Source: a virus
Lineage: Duplodnaviria > Heunggongvirae > Uroviricota > Caudoviricetes
IMG/VR virus record: IMGVR_UViG_2657245448_000011
DNA length: 14,790 nt
Reading direction: 5' to 3' (one strand)
Both the position numbers and the translations under genes were made by a program. A model generated the notes under the pieces. That model was not told the origin of the DNA. It made no database searches and saw only the letters and a program-made list of their open reading frames with translations. How positions within the stretch are numbered: the stretch's first letter is position 1; every line of letters begins with the position of its first letter. This document shows, one piece after another, positions 1 through 14,790 of the stretch.

Positions 1-672
1 ATGTGTGGACGTTTCGTTCAATCAATGACGCGTGAAGATTATCTCGCCCTGCTCGCTGTTGAGGCCGAACTCGACATACCATACGATCCCGAACCAATTG
101 GTCGTTTTAACGTCGCGCCAGGCACCAAAGTTCTGCTACTGAGCGAACATGATGAGCAGTTGCATCTTGATCCAGTTATCTGGGGATACGCCCCCGGTTG
201 GTGGGATAAACCGCCACTCATTAACGCACGGTCTGAAACTGCGGCCACCAGCAGAATGTTTAAACCACTCTGGCAACATGGTCGCGCAATTTGCTTTGCT
301 GATGGCTGGTACGAATGGAAAAAGGAAGGTGACAAAAAGCAGCCCTACTTCATTCATCGAGCCGATGGCCAGCCGATATTTATGGCGGCGATCGGCAGCA
401 CACCATTCGAACGTGGAGATGAAGCAGAAGGTTTCCTGATAGTGACAGCTGCGGCCGACAAAGGGCTGGTAGATATACACGACAGGCGGCCTCTGGTACT
501 GTCCCCAGAAGCTGCTCGCGAATGGATGAGACAGGACACTGGAGGGAAAGATGCTGCGGAAATTGCGGCAGACGGTTCCGTACCGGCTGATAAATTTATA
601 TGGCATGCCGTAACGCGCGCCGTCGGGAATGTACGAAATCAAAGCTATGAGCTTATAATGCCGATAAATTAA
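1..672 (+). CDS. yedK: SOS-response-associated peptidase (SRAP), abasic-site processing protein YedK-like
   Basis: Complete 223-aa ORF starting exactly at window position 1. N-terminus MCGRF with Cys2 is the hallmark SRAP nucleophile arrangement; length matches E. coli YedK (about 222 aa). Confidence 0.85.
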   Translation: MCGRFVQSMTREDYLALLAVEAELDIPYDPEPIGRFNVAPGTKVLLLSEHDEQLHLDPVIWGYAPGWWDKPPLINARSETAATSRMFKPLWQHGRAICFADGWYEWKKEGDKKQPYFIHRADGQPIFMAAIGSTPFERGDEAEGFLIVTAAADKGLVDIHDRRPLVLSPEAAREWMRQDTGGKDAAEIAADGSVPADKFIWHAVTRAVGNVRNQSYELIMPIN

Positions 673-690
673 ATCTGTTAGGACTGTATA

Positions 691-1161
691 ATGACAGACA
701 AGGAAATCCTGGAGTGGATCCATAACACTTCTCCGACTATCGAACAGCAGTTGAGGCGCTGGCTGGATGAAATTATGGAGAATGGCCATCAGTCATCCGA
801 GTACGCTCATGGCATAGAGTTACATGACAGGATTCGATTGGCCCTTTTAAGGCCCTACACCAATAAATACAACGGATTTTGTCTTTCGATTTGCACCGTG
901 CGTTTGCCTGCTGAAATTCAGGGAAAAGGATGGTTTAAAAGTTTCCTTAAACTTTGTTGCGAGATAAATCCTTGGCACGATGTAATTTTGGAAGACGTAG
1001 GGAATGAACATCTACTTTCTTTCTGCAAGCGCAACAATTTTCAAGTTCTGGACCCGTTTTATAAAACAACATATGTGGTTAATAAACAGGCTGTAATGAA
1101 TTTGGTAACCAAGCCTCTAGGACGCTATACCGATTATTTAACCCTCAACAAATCAGTGTAA
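691..1161 (+). CDS. yedL: GNAT-family N-acetyltransferase-like protein, possible YedL orthologue
   Basis: 156-aa ORF 18 bp after yedK with AGGA upstream of ATG. Contains GNAT-like motifs (IQGKGWFKSFL and NEHLLSFCKRNNFQV). Recalled E. coli synteny places yedL directly after yedK. Visibly AT-rich compared with flanking genes. Last 28 bp overlap the umuC 3' end convergently. Confidence 0.55.
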   Translation: MTDKEILEWIHNTSPTIEQQLRRWLDEIMENGHQSSEYAHGIELHDRIRLALLRPYTNKYNGFCLSICTVRLPAEIQGKGWFKSFLKLCCEINPWHDVILEDVGNEHLLSFCKRNNFQVLDPFYKTTYVVNKQAVMNLVTKPLGRYTDYLTLNKSV

Positions 1162-2402
1162 CGCGTAGTATACCTTGGAGAGAGCATCTCTCGCTTCATC
1201 TGCCACTGCTGCTGTATACCCTGCCCAGCAAAGTAGAGCGTGCCCCTTCCATCTTTCGCGTTCAGATGATCCAGAACTTCCATCAACTTCTCGCTTCCCC
1301 GGCGAGGCGCATTATCCTCGAACAGATTCAACTGGGCGATGCCCTGACTGAAGAAATCCCCCAGCATTACCCCGGCTTTCTGATATCGGTGTCCGTCTTT
1401 CCATATTGCATCCAGACTCCGCGTCGCTGCGGCAATGATATCCCGGCTGTCCTGTGTCGGGGTGAGCAGCTTCACCGACGCGCTGTTACCGTAGTACGGT
1501 TCGTCCAACGCAAAGGGTGACGTTTTAACAAAAGTAGATATGAAGCGGCAATACTGATGCTCTCCACGTAACTTTTCTGCGGCGCGTGACGCGTAGCTGC
1601 AGATGGCCTGTCGCATAGCATCATAATCCGTAATACGTTCCCCGAATGATCTGGAACAGACAATTTCCTGCTTTACGGGGGCAAATTCCTCCAGTTCAAG
1701 ACAGCGCTCACCGCGCAGTTCGCGCACCGTTCTCTCGAGGACAACATTGAAGTGCTTCCGGATAAAACGAATATCAGTATCAGCCAGATCCAGAACCGTT
1801 TTAATCCCCATTGCCTCCAGCTTTTTGCTGATACGGCGCCCTACTCCCCAGACCTCATCAACCGGAAGCGCAGCCATCAGTTTGCGCTGGCGTTCGAGGT
1901 TCGATAAGTCCACTACTCCGCCCGTCTGTTTCTGCCATTTCTTGGCTGCATGGTTCGCCAGTTTCGCCAGAGTTTTAGTTTGAGCTATTCCAACCCCAAC
2001 CATCAGTCCTGTATTTTGATAAACAGCATCTTTTAATTCCCGCCCAAAATCCTCAAGTACACGACAATTCCTCACACCAGCAAGATCACAGAAAGCCTCA
2101 TCAATTGAATATATTTCGCAGCGGGGCGACATTGCCTCCAGCGTGGTCATCACACGGTTCGACATATCTGCATAAAGCTCGTAATTGCTGCTGAAACAAA
2201 CCACGCCATATCGACGGAATAAGTCCTTCTGCTTAAAATACGGGTCCCCCATTTTCACACCAGCTTTTTTGGCTGCAGCGTTACGGGCGATAACACAACC
2301 GTCGTTATTGGAAAGAACGACAACAGGTTTGTCTTTCAGATCGGGCCGGAATGCCATCTCACAGCTGGCGTAAAACGAGTTCACATCAACCAGGGCAAAC
2401 AT
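1134..2402 (-). CDS. umuC: DNA polymerase V catalytic subunit UmuC (Y-family translesion polymerase)
   Basis: 422-aa ORF; N-terminus MFALVDVNSFYASCE and SIDEAF motif; C-terminus DLLRVK as in E. coli UmuC; high identity over the full length as far as I can recall the E. coli sequence. Start ATG overlaps umuD stop (TGACATG arrangement). Confidence 0.95.
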   Translation of the reverse strand: MFALVDVNSFYASCEMAFRPDLKDKPVVVLSNNDGCVIARNAAAKKAGVKMGDPYFKQKDLFRRYGVVCFSSNYELYADMSNRVMTTLEAMSPRCEIYSIDEAFCDLAGVRNCRVLEDFGRELKDAVYQNTGLMVGVGIAQTKTLAKLANHAAKKWQKQTGGVVDLSNLERQRKLMAALPVDEVWGVGRRISKKLEAMGIKTVLDLADTDIRFIRKHFNVVLERTVRELRGERCLELEEFAPVKQEIVCSRSFGERITDYDAMRQAICSYASRAAEKLRGEHQYCRFISTFVKTSPFALDEPYYGNSASVKLLTPTQDSRDIIAAATRSLDAIWKDGHRYQKAGVMLGDFFSQGIAQLNLFEDNAPRRGSEKLMEVLDHLNAKDGRGTLYFAGQGIQQQWQMKREMLSPRYTTRYTDLLRVK

Positions 2403-2403
2403 G

Positions 2404-2823
2404 TCAGCTTGCCGCTTTCACGATAAACGTCACAACACCAAAGATATCCAGCGTATCTTCGCTGTTTATCGTAATGGGGGCATAAGAGCTGTTTTCAGGA
2501 ACAAGCATAAGTATTGGCTGTAACTGAAGACGTTTAACCGTGAACTCGCCATCAATGGCAGCGATAACAATATCTCCATGTGCAGGCTTTCTGGAACGGT
2601 CGACGACCAGCAAATCGCCATTCCCGATCCCCGCTCCAGTCATAGAATCACCGGACGACTTCACGAAGTATGTCGCACTTGGATGCTGAACTAATAGTTC
2701 ATTGAGATCAATCCGTTGTTCAACGTAATCCTGCGCTGGTGAGGGAAAGCCACATGGGACAAGATCACTAAATAAGGGAAGCGCAACTATCTGGCGCAGC
2801 TCAGTTGGTGAATAAAACTTCAT
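2404..2823 (-). CDS. umuD: DNA polymerase V accessory subunit UmuD (LexA-like self-cleaving protein)
   Basis: Start trimmed to the internal ATG (MKFYSPTEL...) giving 139 aa, the length of E. coli UmuD. Cys24-Gly25 cleavage site and SGDSM serine motif are present. Immediately upstream of umuC. Confidence 0.9.
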
Positions 2824-2843
2824 AATAAACTCACTCATATTTA

Positions 2844-2863
2844 TACTGTTTATGCATACAGTA
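2844..2863. promoter_or_regulatory. LexA operator (SOS box) proximal to umuD
   Basis: TACTGTTTATGCATACAGTA, a perfect CTG-N10-CAG palindrome matching the TACTG(TA)5CAGTA consensus, 21 bp upstream of the umuD start codon. Confidence 0.8.
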
Positions 2864-2865
2864 TA

Positions 2866-2885
2866 TACTGGCATTCAGCACAGTA
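2866..2885. promoter_or_regulatory. Second LexA operator (SOS box) proximal to dinI-like gene
   Basis: TACTGGCATTCAGCACAGTA, again CTG-N10-CAG with TACTG/CAGTA arms, 2 bp from the first box and 16 bp upstream of the dinI-like ATG, directly followed by an AAAGAGGAG ribosome-binding site. Confidence 0.75.
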
Positions 2886-2900
2886 AAGAGGAGTTAAAGC

Positions 2901-3143
2901 ATGTTCGTGGAACTCGTTTATGACAAAAGGAATTTTGATGGGCTGCCCGGTGCAAAAGATATCATTCTGGGCGAATTGACCAGGAGGGTTCACCGGATCT
3001 TCCCCGATGCTGATGTTCGGGTTAAGCCGATGATGACACCGCCAGCGATCAACACTGACGCCAGCAAGCATGAGAAAGAACAGATAAGCCGTACTGTTCA
3101 GGAAATGTTTGAAGAGACTGATATGTGGCTGGTTTCAGATTAA
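2901..3143 (+). CDS. dinI: DinI-family DNA-damage-inducible protein (prophage-type paralogue)
   Basis: 80-aa ORF with strong RBS; resembles DinI in length and in the C-terminal acidic motif (MFEETDMWLVSD versus E. coli DinI ...SADDWFVSE). Preceded by a LexA box. Confidence 0.85.
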   Translation: MFVELVYDKRNFDGLPGAKDIILGELTRRVHRIFPDADVRVKPMMTPPAINTDASKHEKEQISRTVQEMFEETDMWLVSD

Positions 3144-3420: not shown

Positions 3421-3801
3421 CTAAACACCTGGAAGGGTTCTATTCTGCGCATACCGTCCCTTACCAAACATCCGTACAGCGTAGTACATCACCGCACGCT
3501 TCCACTTTGGTACCCCCAGAACCTGCATCCCGTCCAGAAAAATGAGATCGGCTTCTTTCTTTGTCCGTAGCGCATTATCGTACATGTAATCATGAATGAT
3601 AGCGGCTTTGGCGTACCGACCATCAGGCGGGAGGAATGTCCAGAATAACCGTGGTACGCTCGCCAGATCGGTCACAAACCCAGCCGGGACCTTAATCACA
3701 TCACTGTTGTCATCCGAGAGGTAAAACTCGAAGGGTTCGTACACCCGCCATTTGTAATGACCCAGCATTTCCAGAATCGCCGGGGTGGTGAATTTACTCA
3801 T
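3421..3801 (-). CDS. DUF1353-like phage-associated protein
   Basis: Start trimmed to ATG at 3801 (MSKFTTPAIL..., 126 aa). Motifs VPAGFVTDLASVP and IIHDYMYD resemble the DUF1353 family often found next to phage tail-fibre genes. Family assignment is from memory, not a search. Confidence 0.6.
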   Translation of the reverse strand: MSKFTTPAILEMLGHYKWRVYEPFEFYLSDDNSDVIKVPAGFVTDLASVPRLFWTFLPPDGRYAKAAIIHDYMYDNALRTKKEADLIFLDGMQVLGVPKWKRAVMYYAVRMFGKGRYAQNRTLPGV

Positions 3802-3892
3802 TGACTTGTTCCGTCTGATGGTGAAAAAAATCATTCCACCAACAGGATCATTCCTTTCCCGTTGGTAACATACTAATAGGTTATTTTTCTTG

Positions 3893-3926
3893 CACCGCTC
3901 TCTCCCGTGATTGAGCGGTCTTTTTT
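3893..3926 (+). terminator. Rho-independent terminator-like hairpin (plus strand)
   Basis: 7-bp stem ACCGCTC/GAGCGGT with a 12-nt loop, followed by a run of 7 T. No plus-strand gene ends nearby. Confidence 0.45.
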
Positions 3927-4070
3927 TATTCGCGTATCAGTGCTGTCTCATGTTCTAAAATGAGGCTTTGATCATTGTTTTTCACAGGCTGATGGTGAAA
4001 TAAATCTAACCGCCCTGTGGGCCGGGTGCTGTAGATAAGAAATGTGCATAGCATAATAGCCTCGTAGTCT

Positions 4071-4111
4071 AATGGCCGCTTCTTTCCCAACAGGTGAAGC
4101 GGCCATTTTTT
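4071..4111 (+). terminator. Strong rho-independent terminator-like hairpin (plus strand)
   Basis: 11-bp perfect stem ATGGCCGCTTC/GAAGCGGCCAT with a 13-nt loop, followed by TTTTTTT. No plus-strand ORF precedes it. Confidence 0.55.
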
Positions 4112-4280
4112 TATTGAAAACTATCCCCACTCTGCCTGGCGTAATATTCCTGTGTAAAAATGAGATCCCGATCTCTTGCCTTCCGTTTCCTGCCGGTGAA
4201 ATACATTAGGTGTCCTCCGTAACGAGGACGCTGCATATTTACTACCGAAAATATCCTTTAGCAATCTTAATGGCACTTGT

Positions 4281-4320
4281 GGCCGCTTCTGTCTCTCCTG
4301 TACAGAAGCGGCTTTTTTTT
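4281..4320 (+). terminator. Strong rho-independent terminator-like hairpin (plus strand), related to the hairpin at 4071
   Basis: 11-bp perfect stem GCCGCTTCTGT/ACAGAAGCGGC with a 9-nt loop, followed by 9 T. Shares the GCCGCTTC/GAAGCGGC stem core and an upstream TAATGG motif with the 4071 hairpin. Confidence 0.55.
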
Positions 4321-4372
4321 TCAGCTCATCACCCAGCTGGTTCGATAGTGATGGTCCCGGCAGTGTTCACGA

Positions 4373-4744
4373 CTACCAGCGTTTTACGAATGGCTGAAAG
4401 TCATTATTGTTAACCCTGAAGCGTGTATACATACTGCCGTCTGCCATGAACAGGATTTGTGTTATCCATTCTTTTGCGCCACCCACCGCAGGAATGACCT
4501 TCTGTCCGTCATCGCCCGCGCCGAGTGAATCAAGAGTCTGCACCATGCCATACGCCATACTGCCCGATTGCGGATTACCTTCCGTATCCGGGGTGATCTT
4601 CATATAACCGACAGTTGCGGTGTTCAGATTTGCACAGACTGGCGCATCACCCGCATGGAACAGGCCAAACTTTCCGGCCAGCGAGACAATACCTGATGCT
4701 TTACCTGCCTGTGAGCCCAGCGTATTTGAGTTTATAATTATCAT
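4373..4744 (-). CDS. Hypothetical protein (123 aa), last gene of the tail-fibre operon
   Basis: ORF with ATG at 4744 preceded by AAGGTGA Shine-Dalgarno; 8 nt after the stop of the upstream gene. Gly/Ala-rich; no domain recognised. Confidence 0.6.
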   Translation of the reverse strand: MIIINSNTLGSQAGKASGIVSLAGKFGLFHAGDAPVCANLNTATVGYMKITPDTEGNPQSGSMAYGMVQTLDSLGAGDDGQKVIPAVGGAKEWITQILFMADGSMYTRFRVNNNDFQPFVKRW

Positions 4745-4752
4745 GATTGTTA

Positions 4753-5121
4753 TCACCTTTTAATCCAGTTACCCCAGCCTGTCAGCCAGTTCCCCCCTCT
4801 TGAGTGCAGTGAATTATCCGTGCCGTAGAACAACTGATAAGTTACTTCACCAGGCTCCAGAACTTCAGGGATGTATCGCGTACCATCCGGGCCAGCACCT
4901 TTTGATGATATTGTCCAGACAATACCCCAGGGCCATCTCGAATCTGGTACGTGAGGAACGGCTTTGGTGGAGCGCATGAACCCCGTCAGCGTCATGTTGA
5001 AGTCCATTACTTCCGTCATCATGCCTGCCGGCACTGAACCAAACAGCCCGGCAATGACCAGTGGATCGATATCCGGATGCTCTGGAGTAACGAGGGACGG
5101 GGGTTTGATATAGATAGCCAT
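4753..5121 (-). CDS. Hypothetical protein (122 aa)
   Basis: ATG-initiated ORF (MAIYIKPP...), same strand and operon context as the tail-fibre genes; Trp/Gly-rich; RBS is weak. No domain recognised. Confidence 0.55.
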   Translation of the reverse strand: MAIYIKPPSLVTPEHPDIDPLVIAGLFGSVPAGMMTEVMDFNMTLTGFMRSTKAVPHVPDSRWPWGIVWTISSKGAGPDGTRYIPEVLEPGEVTYQLFYGTDNSLHSRGGNWLTGWGNWIKR

Positions 5122-5238
5122 AGTGATTTACCAGTTAACCAGAATAATCTGGCTGTGAACTGAAGATACCAGCCCGCCACCATTCCCGGCTGACGAGCCC
5201 CCCAAAAATCCTGGTGCAGGAATGGGCATCTTAATCTC

Positions 5239-5472
5239 CTACGTCACGATGACACGGACACTGCCGTCATATCCTGATGCTCTGATCCACAGGCGGTCCG
5301 GCGGTGTGGCCGTGAATTTTTCATTATTCATATTGTGCGCAGGATGCGCGGCGTCAGGTTTCTGGGCGCTGGAGCAGACATCAGCCACCCCGTTTATCTG
5401 GACAAAAACCGTCTGACTGCCGTCCGTCAGCTCCTGCCACTCCCGCGCCACAATCATTTCTCTGGTTGCCAT
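5239..5472 (-). CDS. Hypothetical small protein (77 aa), paralogue of the adjacent 89-aa protein
   Basis: ATG start with GGAGG Shine-Dalgarno. Clear paralogy to the upstream ORF (REWQELTDG versus RAWQQLTDG; WIRASGYDGSVRVIVT versus WVRAAGYDNKVRLFIT). Confidence 0.6.
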   Translation of the reverse strand: MATREMIVAREWQELTDGSQTVFVQINGVADVCSSAQKPDAAHPAHNMNNEKFTATPPDRLWIRASGYDGSVRVIVT

Positions 5473-5498
5473 AACCCCTCCGGCCCCTTCTGGCCCAC

Positions 5499-5768
5499 TC
5501 AGTTTTTAATCACAGGAACGCTGGCTGCAGCTCTGTCAGTAATGAACAGTCTGACCTTGTTGTCATAGCCCGCGGCCCTCACCCATGCCTTTGAGGGCGG
5601 GGAAATAATAATGGTTTGTCCCGGGCACCTCAGGGAAGGCGCACACTCTCCCGGCCTGATATCGCTGTCACACAGTTCGATGACACCAAAAAACGCAAAG
5701 ATCATATTCTCCTCACCGTCGGTCAGTTGCTGCCACGCTCTTCCCACTTCCAGTACCCTGGTTCCCAT
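5499..5768 (-). CDS. Hypothetical small protein (89 aa), paralogue of the adjacent 77-aa protein
   Basis: ATG start with GGGAG Shine-Dalgarno, 15 bp after the tfa-like stop. Paralogous to 5239..5472. Confidence 0.6.
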   Translation of the reverse strand: MGTRVLEVGRAWQQLTDGEENMIFAFFGVIELCDSDIRPGECAPSLRCPGQTIIISPPSKAWVRAAGYDNKVRLFITDRAAASVPVIKN

Positions 5769-5782
5769 ACTGTCTCCCGCCC

Positions 5783-6385
5783 TTACCCTGTTCTGGTTAT
5801 GTCCTCCACAGATTCATTCCAGCCCACCCTGTAATTTCTGATGGCGTCCAGCACAGTCAGTGCATTCATTTCGGCTTTCATCTGCAACTGACGCTGGTTA
5901 ATCTGCATGCCCTTTTCAAACATCGCCTTTTCAATGGCGTCCGCCAGCGCGAGCAGTTCTTCCGCTGTCACCGGCACGACAGTGTTATCACCATCAGTCC
6001 AGGCAAAGCCATCCGGCAGTACATTTCGTGACGCCATCGCCACCGAGGTACTCAGCCGGGATTGTGTTTTTTTGCCATAATCCCAGCGCCTGCCGTTCCA
6101 GGTCATCAGATACTCTTTCTCTTCCTGCGCATCGCGCCAGGCGTTAATTTCATCCCGCTTAGCCTGTCTGACTGACGCCAGCATCGCCTCAGTAACGGTA
6201 AACGGTGTCACTTCGCCGTATTTTCCGGCGACCAGGTCTGTATAGAGCTGTTGACCATAGTCAGTCGGGTCATGGGCTGCTGCGGTATAGGGAAGATAGC
6301 GCTCACTGTCACTGAACAGCACCTGCACCGAAATCGTCCCGTTCTCGTTATATCGCCCGTGACGGGCATCAGTTATGGTTACCAT
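5783..6385 (-). CDS. tfa: Tail fibre assembly protein (Tfa-like chaperone)
   Basis: 200-aa ORF 10 bp after the tail-fibre gene. C-terminal region (LDAIRNYRVGWNE) resembles the conserved Tfa C-terminus (lambda Tfa ...AWKKYRVLLNRVD). Confidence 0.7.
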   Translation of the reverse strand: MVTITDARHGRYNENGTISVQVLFSDSERYLPYTAAAHDPTDYGQQLYTDLVAGKYGEVTPFTVTEAMLASVRQAKRDEINAWRDAQEEKEYLMTWNGRRWDYGKKTQSRLSTSVAMASRNVLPDGFAWTDGDNTVVPVTAEELLALADAIEKAMFEKGMQINQRQLQMKAEMNALTVLDAIRNYRVGWNESVEDITRTG

Positions 6386-6395
6386 CGATTTTCCC

Positions 6396-7661
6396 TCAAC
6401 GAATACGCTGGAAAAGCGTTAGTTGATCATAGACATCCCGGAAATACCCCATAGCCTGCCAAGTACCCGTAAGCACAACATTTTCAGTGATGATGATGCT
6501 CACGTTGCCATACAAATAAAGGCCACCTGGTTTTATGTATCTCCCTTCAATCTCACTTCCGAATCCACCTCCGCCTGAAGCATATCCCAGCACATAAGAC
6601 CCCACATCCCCCGGTGAAATAATTCCCCCGCCACTTCCCCGGATATACTCCATGAATGCGGCCATCGAAGTATCACTACCCTGTGGCTGCTGTGACACCC
6701 AGACATCATAAGCAGACGGTCCCGGCGTTTTGGCGATGTCCTGCGCGTCTTTGAGCGCCTGCTGTGCCCCCTGCTCATGAATATCGGCCTGCCGCTCGCT
6801 GTCTGCTGCGGCGTTTTTGTTTCGGTTAACCTCTGCTGCGACCTCCTCAACCCGGGTGACCTGCTCTGTGAGTTCGCCCCTTAACTGCTCCGCTGCCACA
6901 GGAACCGCTTCTGCCACCGCATCAGCTGCTGCGCTTTTTGCGGCATTTTCTGCGCGAACAGCATGCTCTTCTGCGAGGGTTTCGCTGCGCGCGGAAGCTT
7001 CCTCGCTGCTCTTCGCGTTTCGCGCCGAGGTCGCTGAGTTCTGCTCGCTCGTTGCCGCGTTCTCTTCTGAGCGTGCAGCTGACGCTGCACTGCCTGACGA
7101 GGCCTGGCTACTTCGCTCTGAAGCCTGCGCACTTTCTTCAGACTGGCGCGCAGAATCACCGGCATGACGTTCACTCAGGGCCGCAGCCTGGGCATCGAGT
7201 CCGGTCTGATGTGCCAGCCGGGCAACCTCCTCTTTCTCCCGGGCGGCGTCATTCCTGGCATCCTCCGCGGCTTTGCGGATTGCATCCATTCCGGACGCCG
7301 CGAGTTCAGCCTGCTCAGCAGCCTCCCGGGCCTGCTGCGCCATCTGCTCAAACTGCTTCAGTGCATCCGGAGTCAGATAATCCCCGCTCACCACCGTCAG
7401 GAAATCATTCAGCGTGCCGTCCGGCGAATCCGCATAGACATCAATGACGCCTACTTTTTTTGGAGGCCAGCCTTCCATGGCCAGAGTGACCTCATAGCGC
7501 GCCGGTTGCGCCTCAATACGATAGCGACCAGCATTTGTTCCAACGCTGGCCGTGGTGGTGACTACGACATTACTGGTGGTGTTCAGCGCCCGCAGCAGGA
7601 TCTGACAGTCGGGCACGGGTCGCCCGGCCCCATCAATGAGGGTGCCTGAGATTATCGGCAT
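6396..7661 (-). CDS. stf: Side tail fibre protein (Stf-like)
   Basis: 421-aa ORF after J. N-terminus (GTLIDGAGRPVPDCQILL...RYEV...GTLNDFL) resembles the lambda Stf N-terminal tail-attachment region; long Ala/Ser/Glu-rich low-complexity middle; Gly-rich C-terminal domain. Confidence 0.8.
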   Translation of the reverse strand: MPIISGTLIDGAGRPVPDCQILLRALNTTSNVVVTTTASVGTNAGRYRIEAQPARYEVTLAMEGWPPKKVGVIDVYADSPDGTLNDFLTVVSGDYLTPDALKQFEQMAQQAREAAEQAELAASGMDAIRKAAEDARNDAAREKEEVARLAHQTGLDAQAAALSERHAGDSARQSEESAQASERSSQASSGSAASAARSEENAATSEQNSATSARNAKSSEEASARSETLAEEHAVRAENAAKSAAADAVAEAVPVAAEQLRGELTEQVTRVEEVAAEVNRNKNAAADSERQADIHEQGAQQALKDAQDIAKTPGPSAYDVWVSQQPQGSDTSMAAFMEYIRGSGGGIISPGDVGSYVLGYASGGGGFGSEIEGRYIKPGGLYLYGNVSIIITENVVLTGTWQAMGYFRDVYDQLTLFQRIR

Positions 7662-7752
7662 AGGAATTGTCTCCGGATAAAATCAATTTCGTCACTCTGG
7701 TAGTCAACGAAATTCTGGTTTATATGAGAGGGATGAGATGAAAAATGCAGCT

Positions 7753-10700
7753 TCAGCTGATACTGATACCCGCTGTTGATTTCTTCATGACGACTACCAG
7801 TAATTCACTGATACTGGTAGTTGGGGTTCGATTGCCAGAACCATTTGAAAAAACATTGAAGGTAAGGGTGACATGCCCTTTTCCTGCTGGCATATCAATA
7901 GCAGCCGAAAAAACTCCTGAAGAATCCGTAGCGGGTTGATGGAAAATGACCTGTCCATTATTTAATACCTGCAACTGACAGGTGGAATACCAGTACCTTA
8001 TGCCTGCATTACCAACTTCATTTATCTCATGCTTTGCTCCACGGAATAACACTGGTGGAATAATAATCTGCCTGTCAAAAGGCTGATCATCATAAATTGT
8101 CACCGTTACGGTACCACTGGCATAACTGCCATTCCGGGGAAAGGCTTTTCCCACCGTTTTAACAAGATCACCTTCAATCTGGTTGGCAGACAGTTTTCCC
8201 AGAATCCGACAGTTCTGGTTAACAGTAACGTTGTTAAGCGTCCCGGAATTCGCATTAATGTTGCCGCTGAAATCCGCGTTTTTCGCGGTCAGCTTTCCGT
8301 CCGGCGCCAGGGAAAACACCGGCGGATTCCCCCCACTGGTGATGGTCGGGGCATTAATGACTGTCGCACTGAGAAATTTAATCAGCGCTTCATTGATAAA
8401 CGTCTGCCCTCCCTGCGTGACCAGTGCAGGCGTGGTATTTCCATTTGCCGGATCGATAAAAGCCACCCTGTTTGCAGCAAGAAGGATCTGACTTAACTGC
8501 TCGCCATCGACCTCTTCTATTCCGGCACCAATTCCGGCGACATAAGTTACGCCATCTTTGGTCTTCTGGATTTTCAGCATATACAGGGCGTTAAGGTTAT
8601 CATTCGTGTCCTTCTGCACTTTCTGAATCTGCTGTATCGTGGCGCTTTGATCTTCCAGTGTCTTATTTACGGTCTGCTCTATTTCGCTTTTTGTGTCATC
8701 CACCACTTTGCTGATTTCAGCAATATCATCCTCGAGTAAACTGTTGTCGATCTGCTCAAACAACTCCTGTGCCAGATGTGTTTTTTGTATTTCACCGGCA
8801 AAAAAATCAAGATACCCTTGCGCATCCCGGCTGGCCTGACCCACCGCCTCTGCAAACGCTGATTTCCCCACCAGGTTGACGCTGCGTACGTAAAAATAAT
8901 GGTCCTGAAGCGGCTTAAGTCCGTCCTTGACCATATATGACGAAACACCCAGCCGCCGCGCGCTGGACGTAATCTCATCCGCGCTGTTGAGTTGTTTTAT
9001 GGAATACCAGAATTCGTACTGCACATCCGGTTGGTAGTAAGTCTGGTGCGGAGTCACGGTTATCTGAAAGTAACCCGGTGTCAGTTCAATGACCACCGGC
9101 GCTTCCGGAGGCCGGATACTGAAGTCCACCTGAGCAGGCTCCCCCTGCTGGCCAAAGCCATTGATGGCCCGTACGGTGAGCGTATAATCCCCCAGTGGCA
9201 GGGCGCGGAACGTGTACTCAGTGTCACTGGTGGTAGCGGAATCGACCAGCAGAACCGGATCATCGTCCTGACCACTGCCCGTGGTCAGACGGACCAGGAA
9301 ACGAACGCCCTTCACCACCCGCGGCGTATCCCAGTGCGCCCGGGCCTGGTACTGATTTCCTTCCGCTTCTGTGGTAACCGTCAGATGTTCCACTGTCGGA
9401 GGAACCACACTGTTGGTGGTGCCCGGTAGCGGATCAAAGTGCGCACCGTTGTCCACAATGGCTTCTTTCTCAGGCACATGCTGAAGGGCTGTTATGGCGT
9501 ACGTTCCGTCGCTGCTTTCTTTGATGCGTATGCAGCGGAACAGGCGCTGGCGCAGGGAAGGCAGTTTCAGCCCCCAGACACTGTACGCCGCAATCCCCGC
9601 TGGCATATTACTGACCGTTACCCGATCCGGGGCGGGCTGCCCGGTCACATCCACCGTAACCGGTTTTCCGTCCGCACCAATGATATTCAGCGTGGCAACG
9701 CCGGTTTTGGGTATTTCCACCTCCCGGTCGAGGGTCAGAGTACGTGTCATCGCATCCACGCTGAGGATGCGCCCGCCGATACTCACCGCGGCATAATCAT
9801 TGTCGCAGACCTCAATGATATCGCCCGGGGTGTGCCGCAGACCTTCTGCCCCGACAGAAAATTCCACCGTCTGGGTTTCCAGTTGTTCCGTTTTAATAAC
9901 CCACAGTCCGGCGCGGTGCGCCTGCCCCCGGCTCGTACAGCCAAACGCATCCATTTTCAGCAGATTCCGTCCGTCCCGCAGGATTGCCGCTTTATCTTCC
10001 ACCAGCAGAGTGGAGGTCTTCCAGCCGTTCTGCGGATCGGTGTACCGGACCTCGACCGCATTATGCCGGTCCTTACGCGCACTGTAACTGTAGCGGAACT
10101 GCACGCCCTGGCTGTCGGTGACCACATTGCTGTTGGTGTAGGTCCAGACTTTATCTGCAGGGCGGTCCTGAATGAACGTCAGCGTCCGCCCGTTCCAGAC
10201 CGGCATGCAGCGCATCACCGAGCAGAAATCAGCCAGCACGTCGTAAGCTTTTCGCTGGGTGGCCAGATAAGCATTAAACGTCATACGGGGCTCTGTGCCG
10301 CCAAAACCATCGGGGATCATCTGATCGCAGTACTGCGCGATGGCATACAGCGCCCATTTATCCACCTCGCTTATGCCTATGCTCCCGCCCATACCGTAAC
10401 GGGGGTGAGTCAGCATATCCAGCAGACACCAGGCCGGGTTACTGGTGTACGCCGGTTTAAGGACTCCATTCCAGATCCCGGTATATGTCCGCGTTTTCGG
10501 GTCATAATTTGACGGAACCTGAACAATGCGCCCGTAAATATGGTAATTGATCGTCACCTGCTGATTGCCAAACTGCTCTGCAGCCACCTTCAGCCCCACC
10601 ACAACCGTATTCGGGTACGCCTGCTTCAGGTCAGTGATTTCGGTATAGGATGACCAGGTGGATTTATTCTGTAACTGATCGGTGGTGCTGTCCGGCGTCA

Positions 10701-11253
10701 CCCGTACCATGCGAACATTGAACGGGCGCGGGGGTAACTCCTCCAGTACCACTGAGGCAAGAAACTGTGAGGTGGTTTTCCCGTTAATATAAATATCTTT
10801 GACCGTCACCCATCCATCAGCACGCTGGATTTGAAGAACGAGATGCAATGAGGTATTCAGACGATCGCCTTTGTTATTACTTTCCTGGAGATAGGGCGTA
10901 CCAAACGTGATACGCAGCCGGTCAATCTCCTGAGCGGTAATGGTCCGGGTAATGGGGGCATCCTGTTTGATCTCAGCGTTGACCATGACCTCCACGCCGG
11001 TATCTTCAAACCCCTCCAGCGGGGTCTGCTCCTGTTCACCGGCGTTATAAATTGCTGTGACACCGTGTACGTTGTAGCTGTCATCGTCATTTACCAGGGG
11101 GGTGTTGTTGATAAGGATACTTTGCATCCCCTTAACCAGTCCCTCGATCGGCCCTTCCCCGATGGCGTCAATGAAGCTCAGTTCCTGTACCGATTTCAGG
11201 TTATCCGGCTCTTCATACGGCGTGCTCTGCTTTTTCTTGTTCTTCCCACCCAT
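7753..11253 (-). CDS. J: Host specificity protein J (central tail fibre/tail tip)
   Basis: 1166-aa ORF colinear with lambda J from N-terminus (MGGKNKKKQ...DNLKS...) through conserved blocks ([53 protein letters not shown]). Confidence 0.95.

Positions 11254-14112: not shown

Positions 14113-14790
<678 letters not shown>

Follow-up and report, generated by a model that had tools for sequence, protein, structure and literature searches.

Paired free-standing tail-fibre knob proteins in a portable cupin-cargo-DUF1353 cassette following the stf and tfa genes of a lambdoid prophage

We analysed the DNA stretch IMGVR_UViG_2657245448_000011 (IMG/VR; Caudoviricetes), 14,790 nt long and hereafter called the window, in which four small genes (ORF1-ORF4) follow the side tail fibre gene stf and the tail-fibre assembly gene tfa of a lambdoid prophage. 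Our results revealed that ORF3 (knobA, 4753-5121, minus strand, 122 aa) and ORF4 (knobB, 4373-4744, minus strand, 123 aa from its ATG) are free-standing tail-fibre knob domains by fold and profile homology. The four genes together form the variable part at the core of a portable cassette, which is composed of a tail-fibre assembly gene, one or more cupin-like proteins, a cargo and a DUF1353 gene. We tentatively favour, at a little under an even chance, that the knob pair serves as a late-made auxiliary adhesin of the phage particle, lectin-like and glycan-binding. In the literature searched, no description was found of a free-standing paired knob family or of the cupin-cargo-DUF1353 frame; the knob fold itself is well known.

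ORF1-ORF4 are genes and not chance open reading frames, since they have homologue clusters, low dN/dS and confident folds. There are 49 homologue clusters for ORF3 and 78 for ORF4; those named by organism are all from Salmonella enterica and the rest come from Logan assemblies. Compared with the closest relative (locus L007), dN/dS was 0.13 for ORF2, 0.25 for ORF3 and 0.24 for ORF4, and the structural models reached a pLDDT of 79.5 for the knob protein and 91.2 for ORF2. Shine-Dalgarno sites were read in the sequence before ORF1 (GGGAGA) and ORF2 (GGAGGGG). The stop codon of ORF3 (4753-4755) is separated by 8 nt from the ATG of ORF4 (4744), and a further site, AAGGTGA, lies within the end of ORF3. 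ORF4 also has an alternative GTG start at 4756. The original prediction had described four same-strand genes of 89, 77, 122 and 123 aa after tfa with the last two translationally coupled behind a strong Shine-Dalgarno site, and the coordinates, the shared strand and the coupling were all confirmed. None of the ORF3/ORF4 homologue clusters carries a functional name, and the database records for the exact window proteins read 'hypothetical protein [Escherichia coli]'.

ORF3 and ORF4 are paralogues as well (33% over 87 aa, E 2e-12), and ORF3 aligns over its full length with the ORF4 family. The model predicts a five- to six-stranded antiparallel sheet wrapped by loops, which can be superposed on known knobs; the knob and beta-prism comparators were R-type pyocin PA0620 (PDB 6CL6/6CU2), phage K gp144, the phi11 RBP, T4 gp34 and the K1F endosialidase. 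A profile built from ORF3 and ORF4 matched only 33 proteins among 1.84 billion representatives. These were stand-alone proteins of 110-133 aa, plus knobs embedded in fibres, such as residues 470-554 of a 624-aa PF12571 tail fibre (P0143, E 1e-8) and a knob preceding the C-terminal Peptidase_S74 chaperone of a 423-aa fibre (P0151). In the window and in all homologous loci the knob proteins are complete, with their own start, stop and Shine-Dalgarno site, and the N-terminal particle-binding domain that characterises a long fibre was found neither in ORF3/ORF4 nor in their counterparts at those loci. Residues G24 and G27 are invariant and F26 is near-invariant; a helix is predicted at 17-25, where pLDDT is only ~50. 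ORF3 has a proline-rich N-terminal peptide. Conservation in the ORF4 family is strongest in the opening 10 residues and a C-terminal KRW, while variability peaks at residues 11-22. Neither signal peptides nor membrane segments were detected in ORF1-ORF4. A sequence search of the PDB returned only noise for the window proteins, and the knobs matched no solved structure. It had been stated earlier that none of the four genes could be assigned to a known family. This stood for ORF3/ORF4 and fell for ORF1/ORF2, which match PHROG 4772; in Pfam, NCBIfam and PADLOC there was no match to any of the four proteins.

ORF1 (5499-5768, minus strand, 89 aa) and ORF2 (5239-5472, minus strand, 77 aa) are paralogues, as had been proposed, with 36% identity over 77 aa (E 4e-22). 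Both matched the PHROG 4772 HMM (E 1.9e-12 and 3.9e-19, respectively) over 1-77 of the 79 profile positions, and this is a catalogued family without an assigned function. The ORF2 model (pLDDT 91) shows a minimal eight-stranded cupin-like barrel with the double-stranded beta-helix arrangement, and ORF1 is likewise a predicted small cupin-like beta-barrel protein. No Pfam cupin match was obtained for either protein. In a nine-member alignment M1, T3, W12, T16, G18, P39 and W62 were invariant, and there was no invariant His or Glu of the kind forming the metal-binding motif of enzymatic cupins. Because the conserved metal-binding histidines are absent, it is unlikely that ORF1/ORF2 are enzymatic cupins, judging from the alignment. 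A BFVD search with the cupin model matched uncharacterised phage proteins only, among which stand-alone proteins of the same fold and 77-100 aa were common. ORF1 is an extra, diverged copy: it is present in L023 and L024, and absent from L007 and the Salmonella loci. Pseudomonas phage 15b (L001, 5920-7703) also has a PHROG 4772 homologue, 9 nt ahead of the gene for a 487-aa collagen-repeat fibre-like protein; that homologue is located between the lysis cassette and the terminase genes, outside the tail gene cluster.

Comparison of related loci showed the frame to recur in each of them. L024 matches the window with 100% identity over 5183-10472. The sister locus L023 encodes a closely similar Tfa (97% identity), ORF1 (89%), ORF2 (95%) and DUF1353 protein (96%), and has no knobs. 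Its cargo slot is occupied by a 685-aa SASA-esterase/DUF6645 protein, which shares 52% identity with the Stx-phage NanS-p sialate O-acetylesterases. The boundaries of the swap between window and L023 lie at 5140/5141 and ~4336/4337. Within the 117-nt gap between ORF2 and ORF3, the segment 5141-5238 (minus strand) is the recombination scar of a NanS-p-like SASA esterase gene, retaining its ribosome-binding site and first ~26 codons; it is ~90% identical to the L023 DNA up to esterase codon ~27 and unrelated thereafter. A glycine-rich 33-aa ORF at 5128-5229 was considered as a microcin-like peptide and was ruled out, being this 5' scar of the esterase gene, with its ATG lost in L007. Other occupants of the slot are a 703-aa esterase (L025), a 173-aa orphan (L022) and a 131-aa orphan with its own DUF4376 Tfa (L018-L021), and DUF1353 with a cupin but without knobs was found in L018-L023 and L025. 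A resemblance of the 131-aa L018 cargo to the stf tip was unsupported by BLASTP, and hhalign gave no support for knobs hidden in the 487-aa Pseudomonas protein or the 173-aa L022 cargo. The cupins are near-identical beside these differing cargos; therefore, the cupin (ORF2 at the 5' side) and DUF1353 (at the 3' side) constitute the constant frame. The original prediction that the position after tfa holds variable cargo was thus supported, the slot contents differing between prophages. L023 is a defective prophage: a deletion (L023 3665-4090) has taken out all of stf and most of J, whose N-terminal ~110 codons now run into the tfa region. Its tfa, two cupin genes, esterase gene and DUF1353 gene are still intact. 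The N-termini of the proteins encoded after the cupin gene look alike (MAIYIKPP, MAIYSGFN, MIITGKSL, MLITGQYF and MPILAPGF), as does that of knobB (MIIINSNT), a likeness recorded without statistics; the sites compared were 5121 and 4744 in the window, L018 5252, L022 5246, L023 5244 and L025 1516. Such similarity could mark a docking peptide common to these proteins, or simply a recombination junction that has been conserved.

The knob genes were paired in every locus examined, including the distant L029, L012 and L008 (hhalign 98.6-99.6%). They directly follow stf-tfa in the window, L007, L009, L027 and L028, and directly follow a minor tail protein gene in L012. A compact form was found in Salmonella lambdoid prophages (stf, Tfa with DUF4376, 77 aa, 134 aa, 123 aa, DUF1353). 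Mu-like Salmonella prophages carry the cassette either downstream of gin and the invertible fibre segment or in the interval from U to com-mom. Gene order in the distant loci was DNA methylase, 110 aa, 106 aa and DUF1353 (L029), and minor tail protein, 122 aa and 89 aa (L012). Distribution was narrow in our searches: the named relatives of the knob pair lie in Salmonella enterica prophages, and tblastn found no ORF3/ORF4 relatives among 50,697 phage records. Neither the knob pair nor the cupins occurred in 5,426 complete E. coli genomes even at low stringency; only DUF4376 was distantly matched there. Two scans of species-representative genomes gave no locus, the sole match being a 23-residue Brevundimonas fragment.

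Comparison of the window with L007 demonstrated that recombination has swapped both the fibre tip and the knob cassette in an otherwise constant tail backbone, the two remaining under purifying selection. For J, L, K and I the identity is 98-100% and dS ~0.03. The first 300 aa of stf are 94-100% identical, whereas the last ~120 aa are only 36-42% identical. ORF3 is 84% identical (dS 0.32) and ORF4 90% (dS 0.20), which is 6-10 times the dS of J. It is the low identity of the stf tip and the high dS of the knobs, next to the near-identical J, L, K and I, that point to exchange of tip and cassette. Positive selection on the knobs was not seen; the divergence from L007 is allele exchange (high dS) under purifying selection.

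The fifth member of the unit is the DUF1353 gene (3421-3801, minus strand, 126 aa; PF07087, E 1.1e-31). The open reading frame is listed as 137 aa from an ATG at 3834, and homology with related loci begins at the ATG at 3801. TtaP, a DUF1353 protein, was shown experimentally to be a phospholipase A2 with the catalytic residues H70, D71 and D85 (PMC11525133). The window protein has H70, D71 and D85 at the TtaP catalytic positions, and is predicted to be a TtaP-family phospholipase A2. TtaP, the founding DUF1353 phospholipase, is apparently kept inactive inside the cell (PMC11525133). DUF1353 genes also occur in the lysis cassettes of the lytic phages IME207, Bjorn and Caulobacter phage DMCA, and in Francisella phage KIRK one directly follows Tfa. 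The common label 'tail assembly chaperone' for DUF1353 (phrog_1158) is probably wrong, because it conflicts with the phospholipase A2 activity of the family and with the placement in lysis cassettes. Between ORF4 and the DUF1353 gene lies a structured non-coding spacer (3802-4372) made of three degenerate ~200-nt units, each ending on the plus strand in a GC-rich hairpin and a T-run (3904-3927, 4071-4113 and 4280-4322). Its RNA folds are more stable than those of shuffled sequences (z -2.4 to -4.5), in agreement with the earlier description of a hairpin-rich non-coding end of the cluster, and no Rfam family matched it. The spacer is 77% conserved in L023, and it is therefore part of the DUF1353 flank and not of the knob cassette. 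The hairpins resemble intrinsic terminators and are oriented against the late operon. Since unit 1 runs antisense across the 5' end of the phospholipase gene, an enzyme that may be toxic could conceivably be controlled by an antisense RNA.

The remainder of the tail region is lambdoid and lies on the minus strand, with L, K, I, J (7753-11253), stf and the DUF4376 gene. stf (6396-7661, minus strand, 421 aa) consists of an N-terminal PF08400 anchor (E 1e-33), a coiled-coil shaft and a C-terminal tip of ~120 aa. The gene at 5783-6385 (minus strand, 200 aa) has a C-terminal DUF4376 domain (PF14301, E 1.5e-19; phrog_1141, E 4e-78). DUF4376 is the C-terminal domain of TfaMu, that is, of Mu-U-type tail-fibre assembly proteins (PMC7882524), so the label tfa is acceptable for this gene. 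A gene for a Lom/Ail-type outer-membrane protein (14113-14559) was located upstream of L and not after J, its usual position in lambda; in L007 such a gene is flanked by those for the minor tail protein and L. At the other end, the SOS-mutagenesis genes umuC (1134-2402, minus strand) and umuD (2404-2874, minus strand) are at or just outside the prophage end. The interval 1-3071 also contains an SRAP (YedK-like) gene (1-672, plus strand), whose cluster is mostly from Citrobacter, a 156-aa orphan (691-1161, plus strand) and a 73-aa orphan (2850-3071, minus strand).

For the function of the knob pair, the adhesin reading is favoured because the proteins fold like fibre knobs and are homologous to them, because the genes follow stf-tfa (in L012, a minor tail gene) and were exchanged together with the stf tip, and because the alternative cargos are glycan-related or fibre-like. 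Knob domains form trimers; R-pyocin fibres carry them in tandem as Knob1-Knob2, and in the K1F endosialidase they bind saccharide; much of the specificity-determining, host-range variation of pyocin fibres sits in Knob2 (PMC6116203). The Stx-phage homologue of the slot esterase, NanS-p of phi24B, was reported to be a virion decoration protein (preprint 10.64898/2026.04.10.717836). In the proposed mechanism the four genes would be transcribed late, together with the tail-fibre genes, as suggested by the gap of only 14 nt between the end of tfa and the start of ORF1, in which no terminator-like site was found. Each knob protein may trimerise, as knob domains inside fibres do, and the trimers of knobA and knobB may stack like Knob1-Knob2 of the R-type pyocin fibre, with the conserved N-terminal decapeptides acting as docking peptides. 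The complex would then bind surface polysaccharide on behalf of the virion and supplement the receptor specificity of stf, and the cupin-like proteins would serve the constant frame as adaptors or as factors in assembly. That the knobs trimerise, stack, bind glycans and attach to the virion is our inference.

Several observations weigh against this proposal. ORF3 and ORF4 have no recognisable virion-anchor domain, merely 20-30 N-terminal residues, and the N-terminal helix of the knob model is of low confidence. If the knobs behaved like pyocin Knob2, variable residues would be expected on the loops; the entropy gave no clean contrast between loops and strands. Furthermore, the cassette is autonomous, standing after unrelated fibre systems (Mu-like contractile after gin, or lambda-like with DUF4376 or Gp38_N partners), and in L029 it follows the DNA methylase gene with no fibre gene nearby. 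With such varied fibre contexts, no common docking partner on the virion is evident. The placement of DUF1353 in the lysis cassettes of several lytic phages equally fits a non-virion role.

The main rival is that the knobs stay off the virion and form a soluble glycan-binding complex which targets, gates or accompanies the DUF1353 phospholipase at or after lysis, acting on the breaking envelope, on receptor-bearing debris (destroyed or masked) or on other cells. We regard it as doubtful, and clearly below the adhesin. In almost all loci the knob pair is accompanied by a linked DUF1353 gene, including L029 where neither fibre nor cupin is nearby, and the cassette is independent of tail type. 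DUF1353 belongs to a proven phospholipase family whose founder seems to be inactive in the cell (PMC11525133), and it sits in the lysis cassettes named above. In the same direction, the PHROG 4772 homologue and the collagen-like fibre protein of phage 15b lie just past the lysis cassette, and NanS-p adjoins the lysis genes in Stx phages. However, the loci with DUF1353 and a cupin but without knobs, together with KIRK, where DUF1353 follows Tfa, argue that the enzyme needs no knobs, and in the window 570 nt with three hairpins lie between ORF4 and DUF1353. A more elaborate form, which we hold to be unlikely, is that cupin, knob pair and DUF1353 make up a phage-borne lectin-targeted phospholipase system, in which trimeric knob lectins, or the NanS-p-like esterase-lectin of other prophages, would attach to glycans of competitor bacteria, receptor-bearing debris or animal-host cells and deliver or unleash the TtaP-type phospholipase at induced lysis. 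If it were true, TtaP in the typhoid toxin islet would be expected to work with a glycan-binding partner.

The location immediately after tfa would also suit assembly helpers, in which case ORF1-ORF4 would scaffold or chaperone the folding of the trimeric fibre and be absent from the finished particle. Knob domains were proposed to aid the folding of trimeric fibres (PMC6116203), and DUF4376 Tfa proteins are required for fibre function (PMC7882524). Nevertheless, there is no similarity to the Caudo_TAP/Tfa families, near-identical cupins go with different cargos, similar knob pairs follow unrelated fibres, and a dedicated Tfa is already there, so that we consider such a role improbable. The original prediction had named unrecognised tail-fibre accessory or chaperone genes as one option; the accessory part survives in the fibre knobs of ORF3/ORF4, and the chaperone part does not, as none of the four is a Tfa-type chaperone in Pfam, PHROG or NCBIfam. 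Its other option was defence, superinfection exclusion or receptor modification. A moron of this sort would protect the lysogen, for instance by acting against the receptors or the fibres of incoming phages. The genes do sit in a known hot spot for morons, where the late operon ends, the family is narrow and diverse, and the slot is variable. However, PADLOC gave zero hits at E up to 1 for the four proteins and their neighbours, and proteins lacking signal peptide and membrane segment would have no access to the cell surface. A scan found no sigma-70 consensus promoter in the short interval between tfa and ORF1, selection is purifying and not diversifying, and the folds are those of receptor-binding proteins, typical of the virion. 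The defence option was thus not borne out, and we think it quite remote. It is least probable of all, and in our view hardly credible, that the four genes are non-functional debris of a tail-fibre gene left by recombination. The cluster does contain a true gene scar at its centre, in a region prone to recombination; yet the reading frames are intact in >100 sequence clusters, dN/dS is 0.13-0.25, pairing is conserved in distant loci, the ribosome-binding sites are good and the folds are confident. Homologues with similarity to tail-fibre domains or chaperones right after tfa in every related phage had been named as one finding that would refute the accessory-module reading. Structural similarity to tail-fibre domains was found; the genes, however, are missing from some related phages, and the slot proved to be variable, a sister prophage carrying a NanS-p-like esterase instead.

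With these results, two families known only as "hypothetical protein" (NCBI) in Salmonella and E. coli prophages gain a fold and a probable function. The results also indicate that a building block of receptor-binding fibres, the knob, also exists as an independently encoded, always-paired protein, and that the tfa-cupin-cargo-DUF1353 frame swaps glycan-directed proteins between Mu-like and lambda-like prophages. Such an exchange slot is relevant to host-range prediction and to the engineering of receptor-binding modules. The TtaP/DUF1353 phospholipase A2 family is also set in a repeatable phage context beside putative glycan-binding proteins, making its function experimentally approachable.

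The four genes resemble several known systems in part. T2 gp38 and Mu U/TfaMu are also small proteins encoded just after the fibre gene, and they reach the fibre tip and help to bind the receptor. A Gp38_N protein precedes the cassette in L006 and L018. However, the gp38 and Tfa families share neither sequence nor fold similarity with ORF1-ORF4. ORF1 and ORF2 agree with PHROG 4772 and other small phage cupin-like proteins in HMM match, in shared fold and in their small, stand-alone size. NanS-p of the Stx prophages (phi24B gp84) has homologues in the same slot of L023 and L025, and the window keeps the 5' scar of one. Like the proposed adhesin it is a late-expressed, glycan-directed accessory protein, but the window cargo consists of non-enzymatic knobs, and the slot esterases are without the DUF1737 capsid-binding domain of the Stx-phage NanS-p. 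The DUF1353 gene shares with TtaP the Pfam family and the identical catalytic positions, whereas it neighbours the four genes in a prophage late operon and not in a toxin islet. The knobs themselves have a parallel in the pyocin-type fibre. There the knobs are domains of fibres of 400-1000 aa, while those of the window are separate products without particle-binding domain, shaft or foot. The likeness to Knob1-Knob2 of the R-type pyocin lies in the paralogous pair in tandem order, and a putative IAGxFG helix-turn of ORF3/ORF4, with a near-invariant Phe before the sheet, may recall the helix-plus-turn with its buried Phe that precedes the pyocin knobs.

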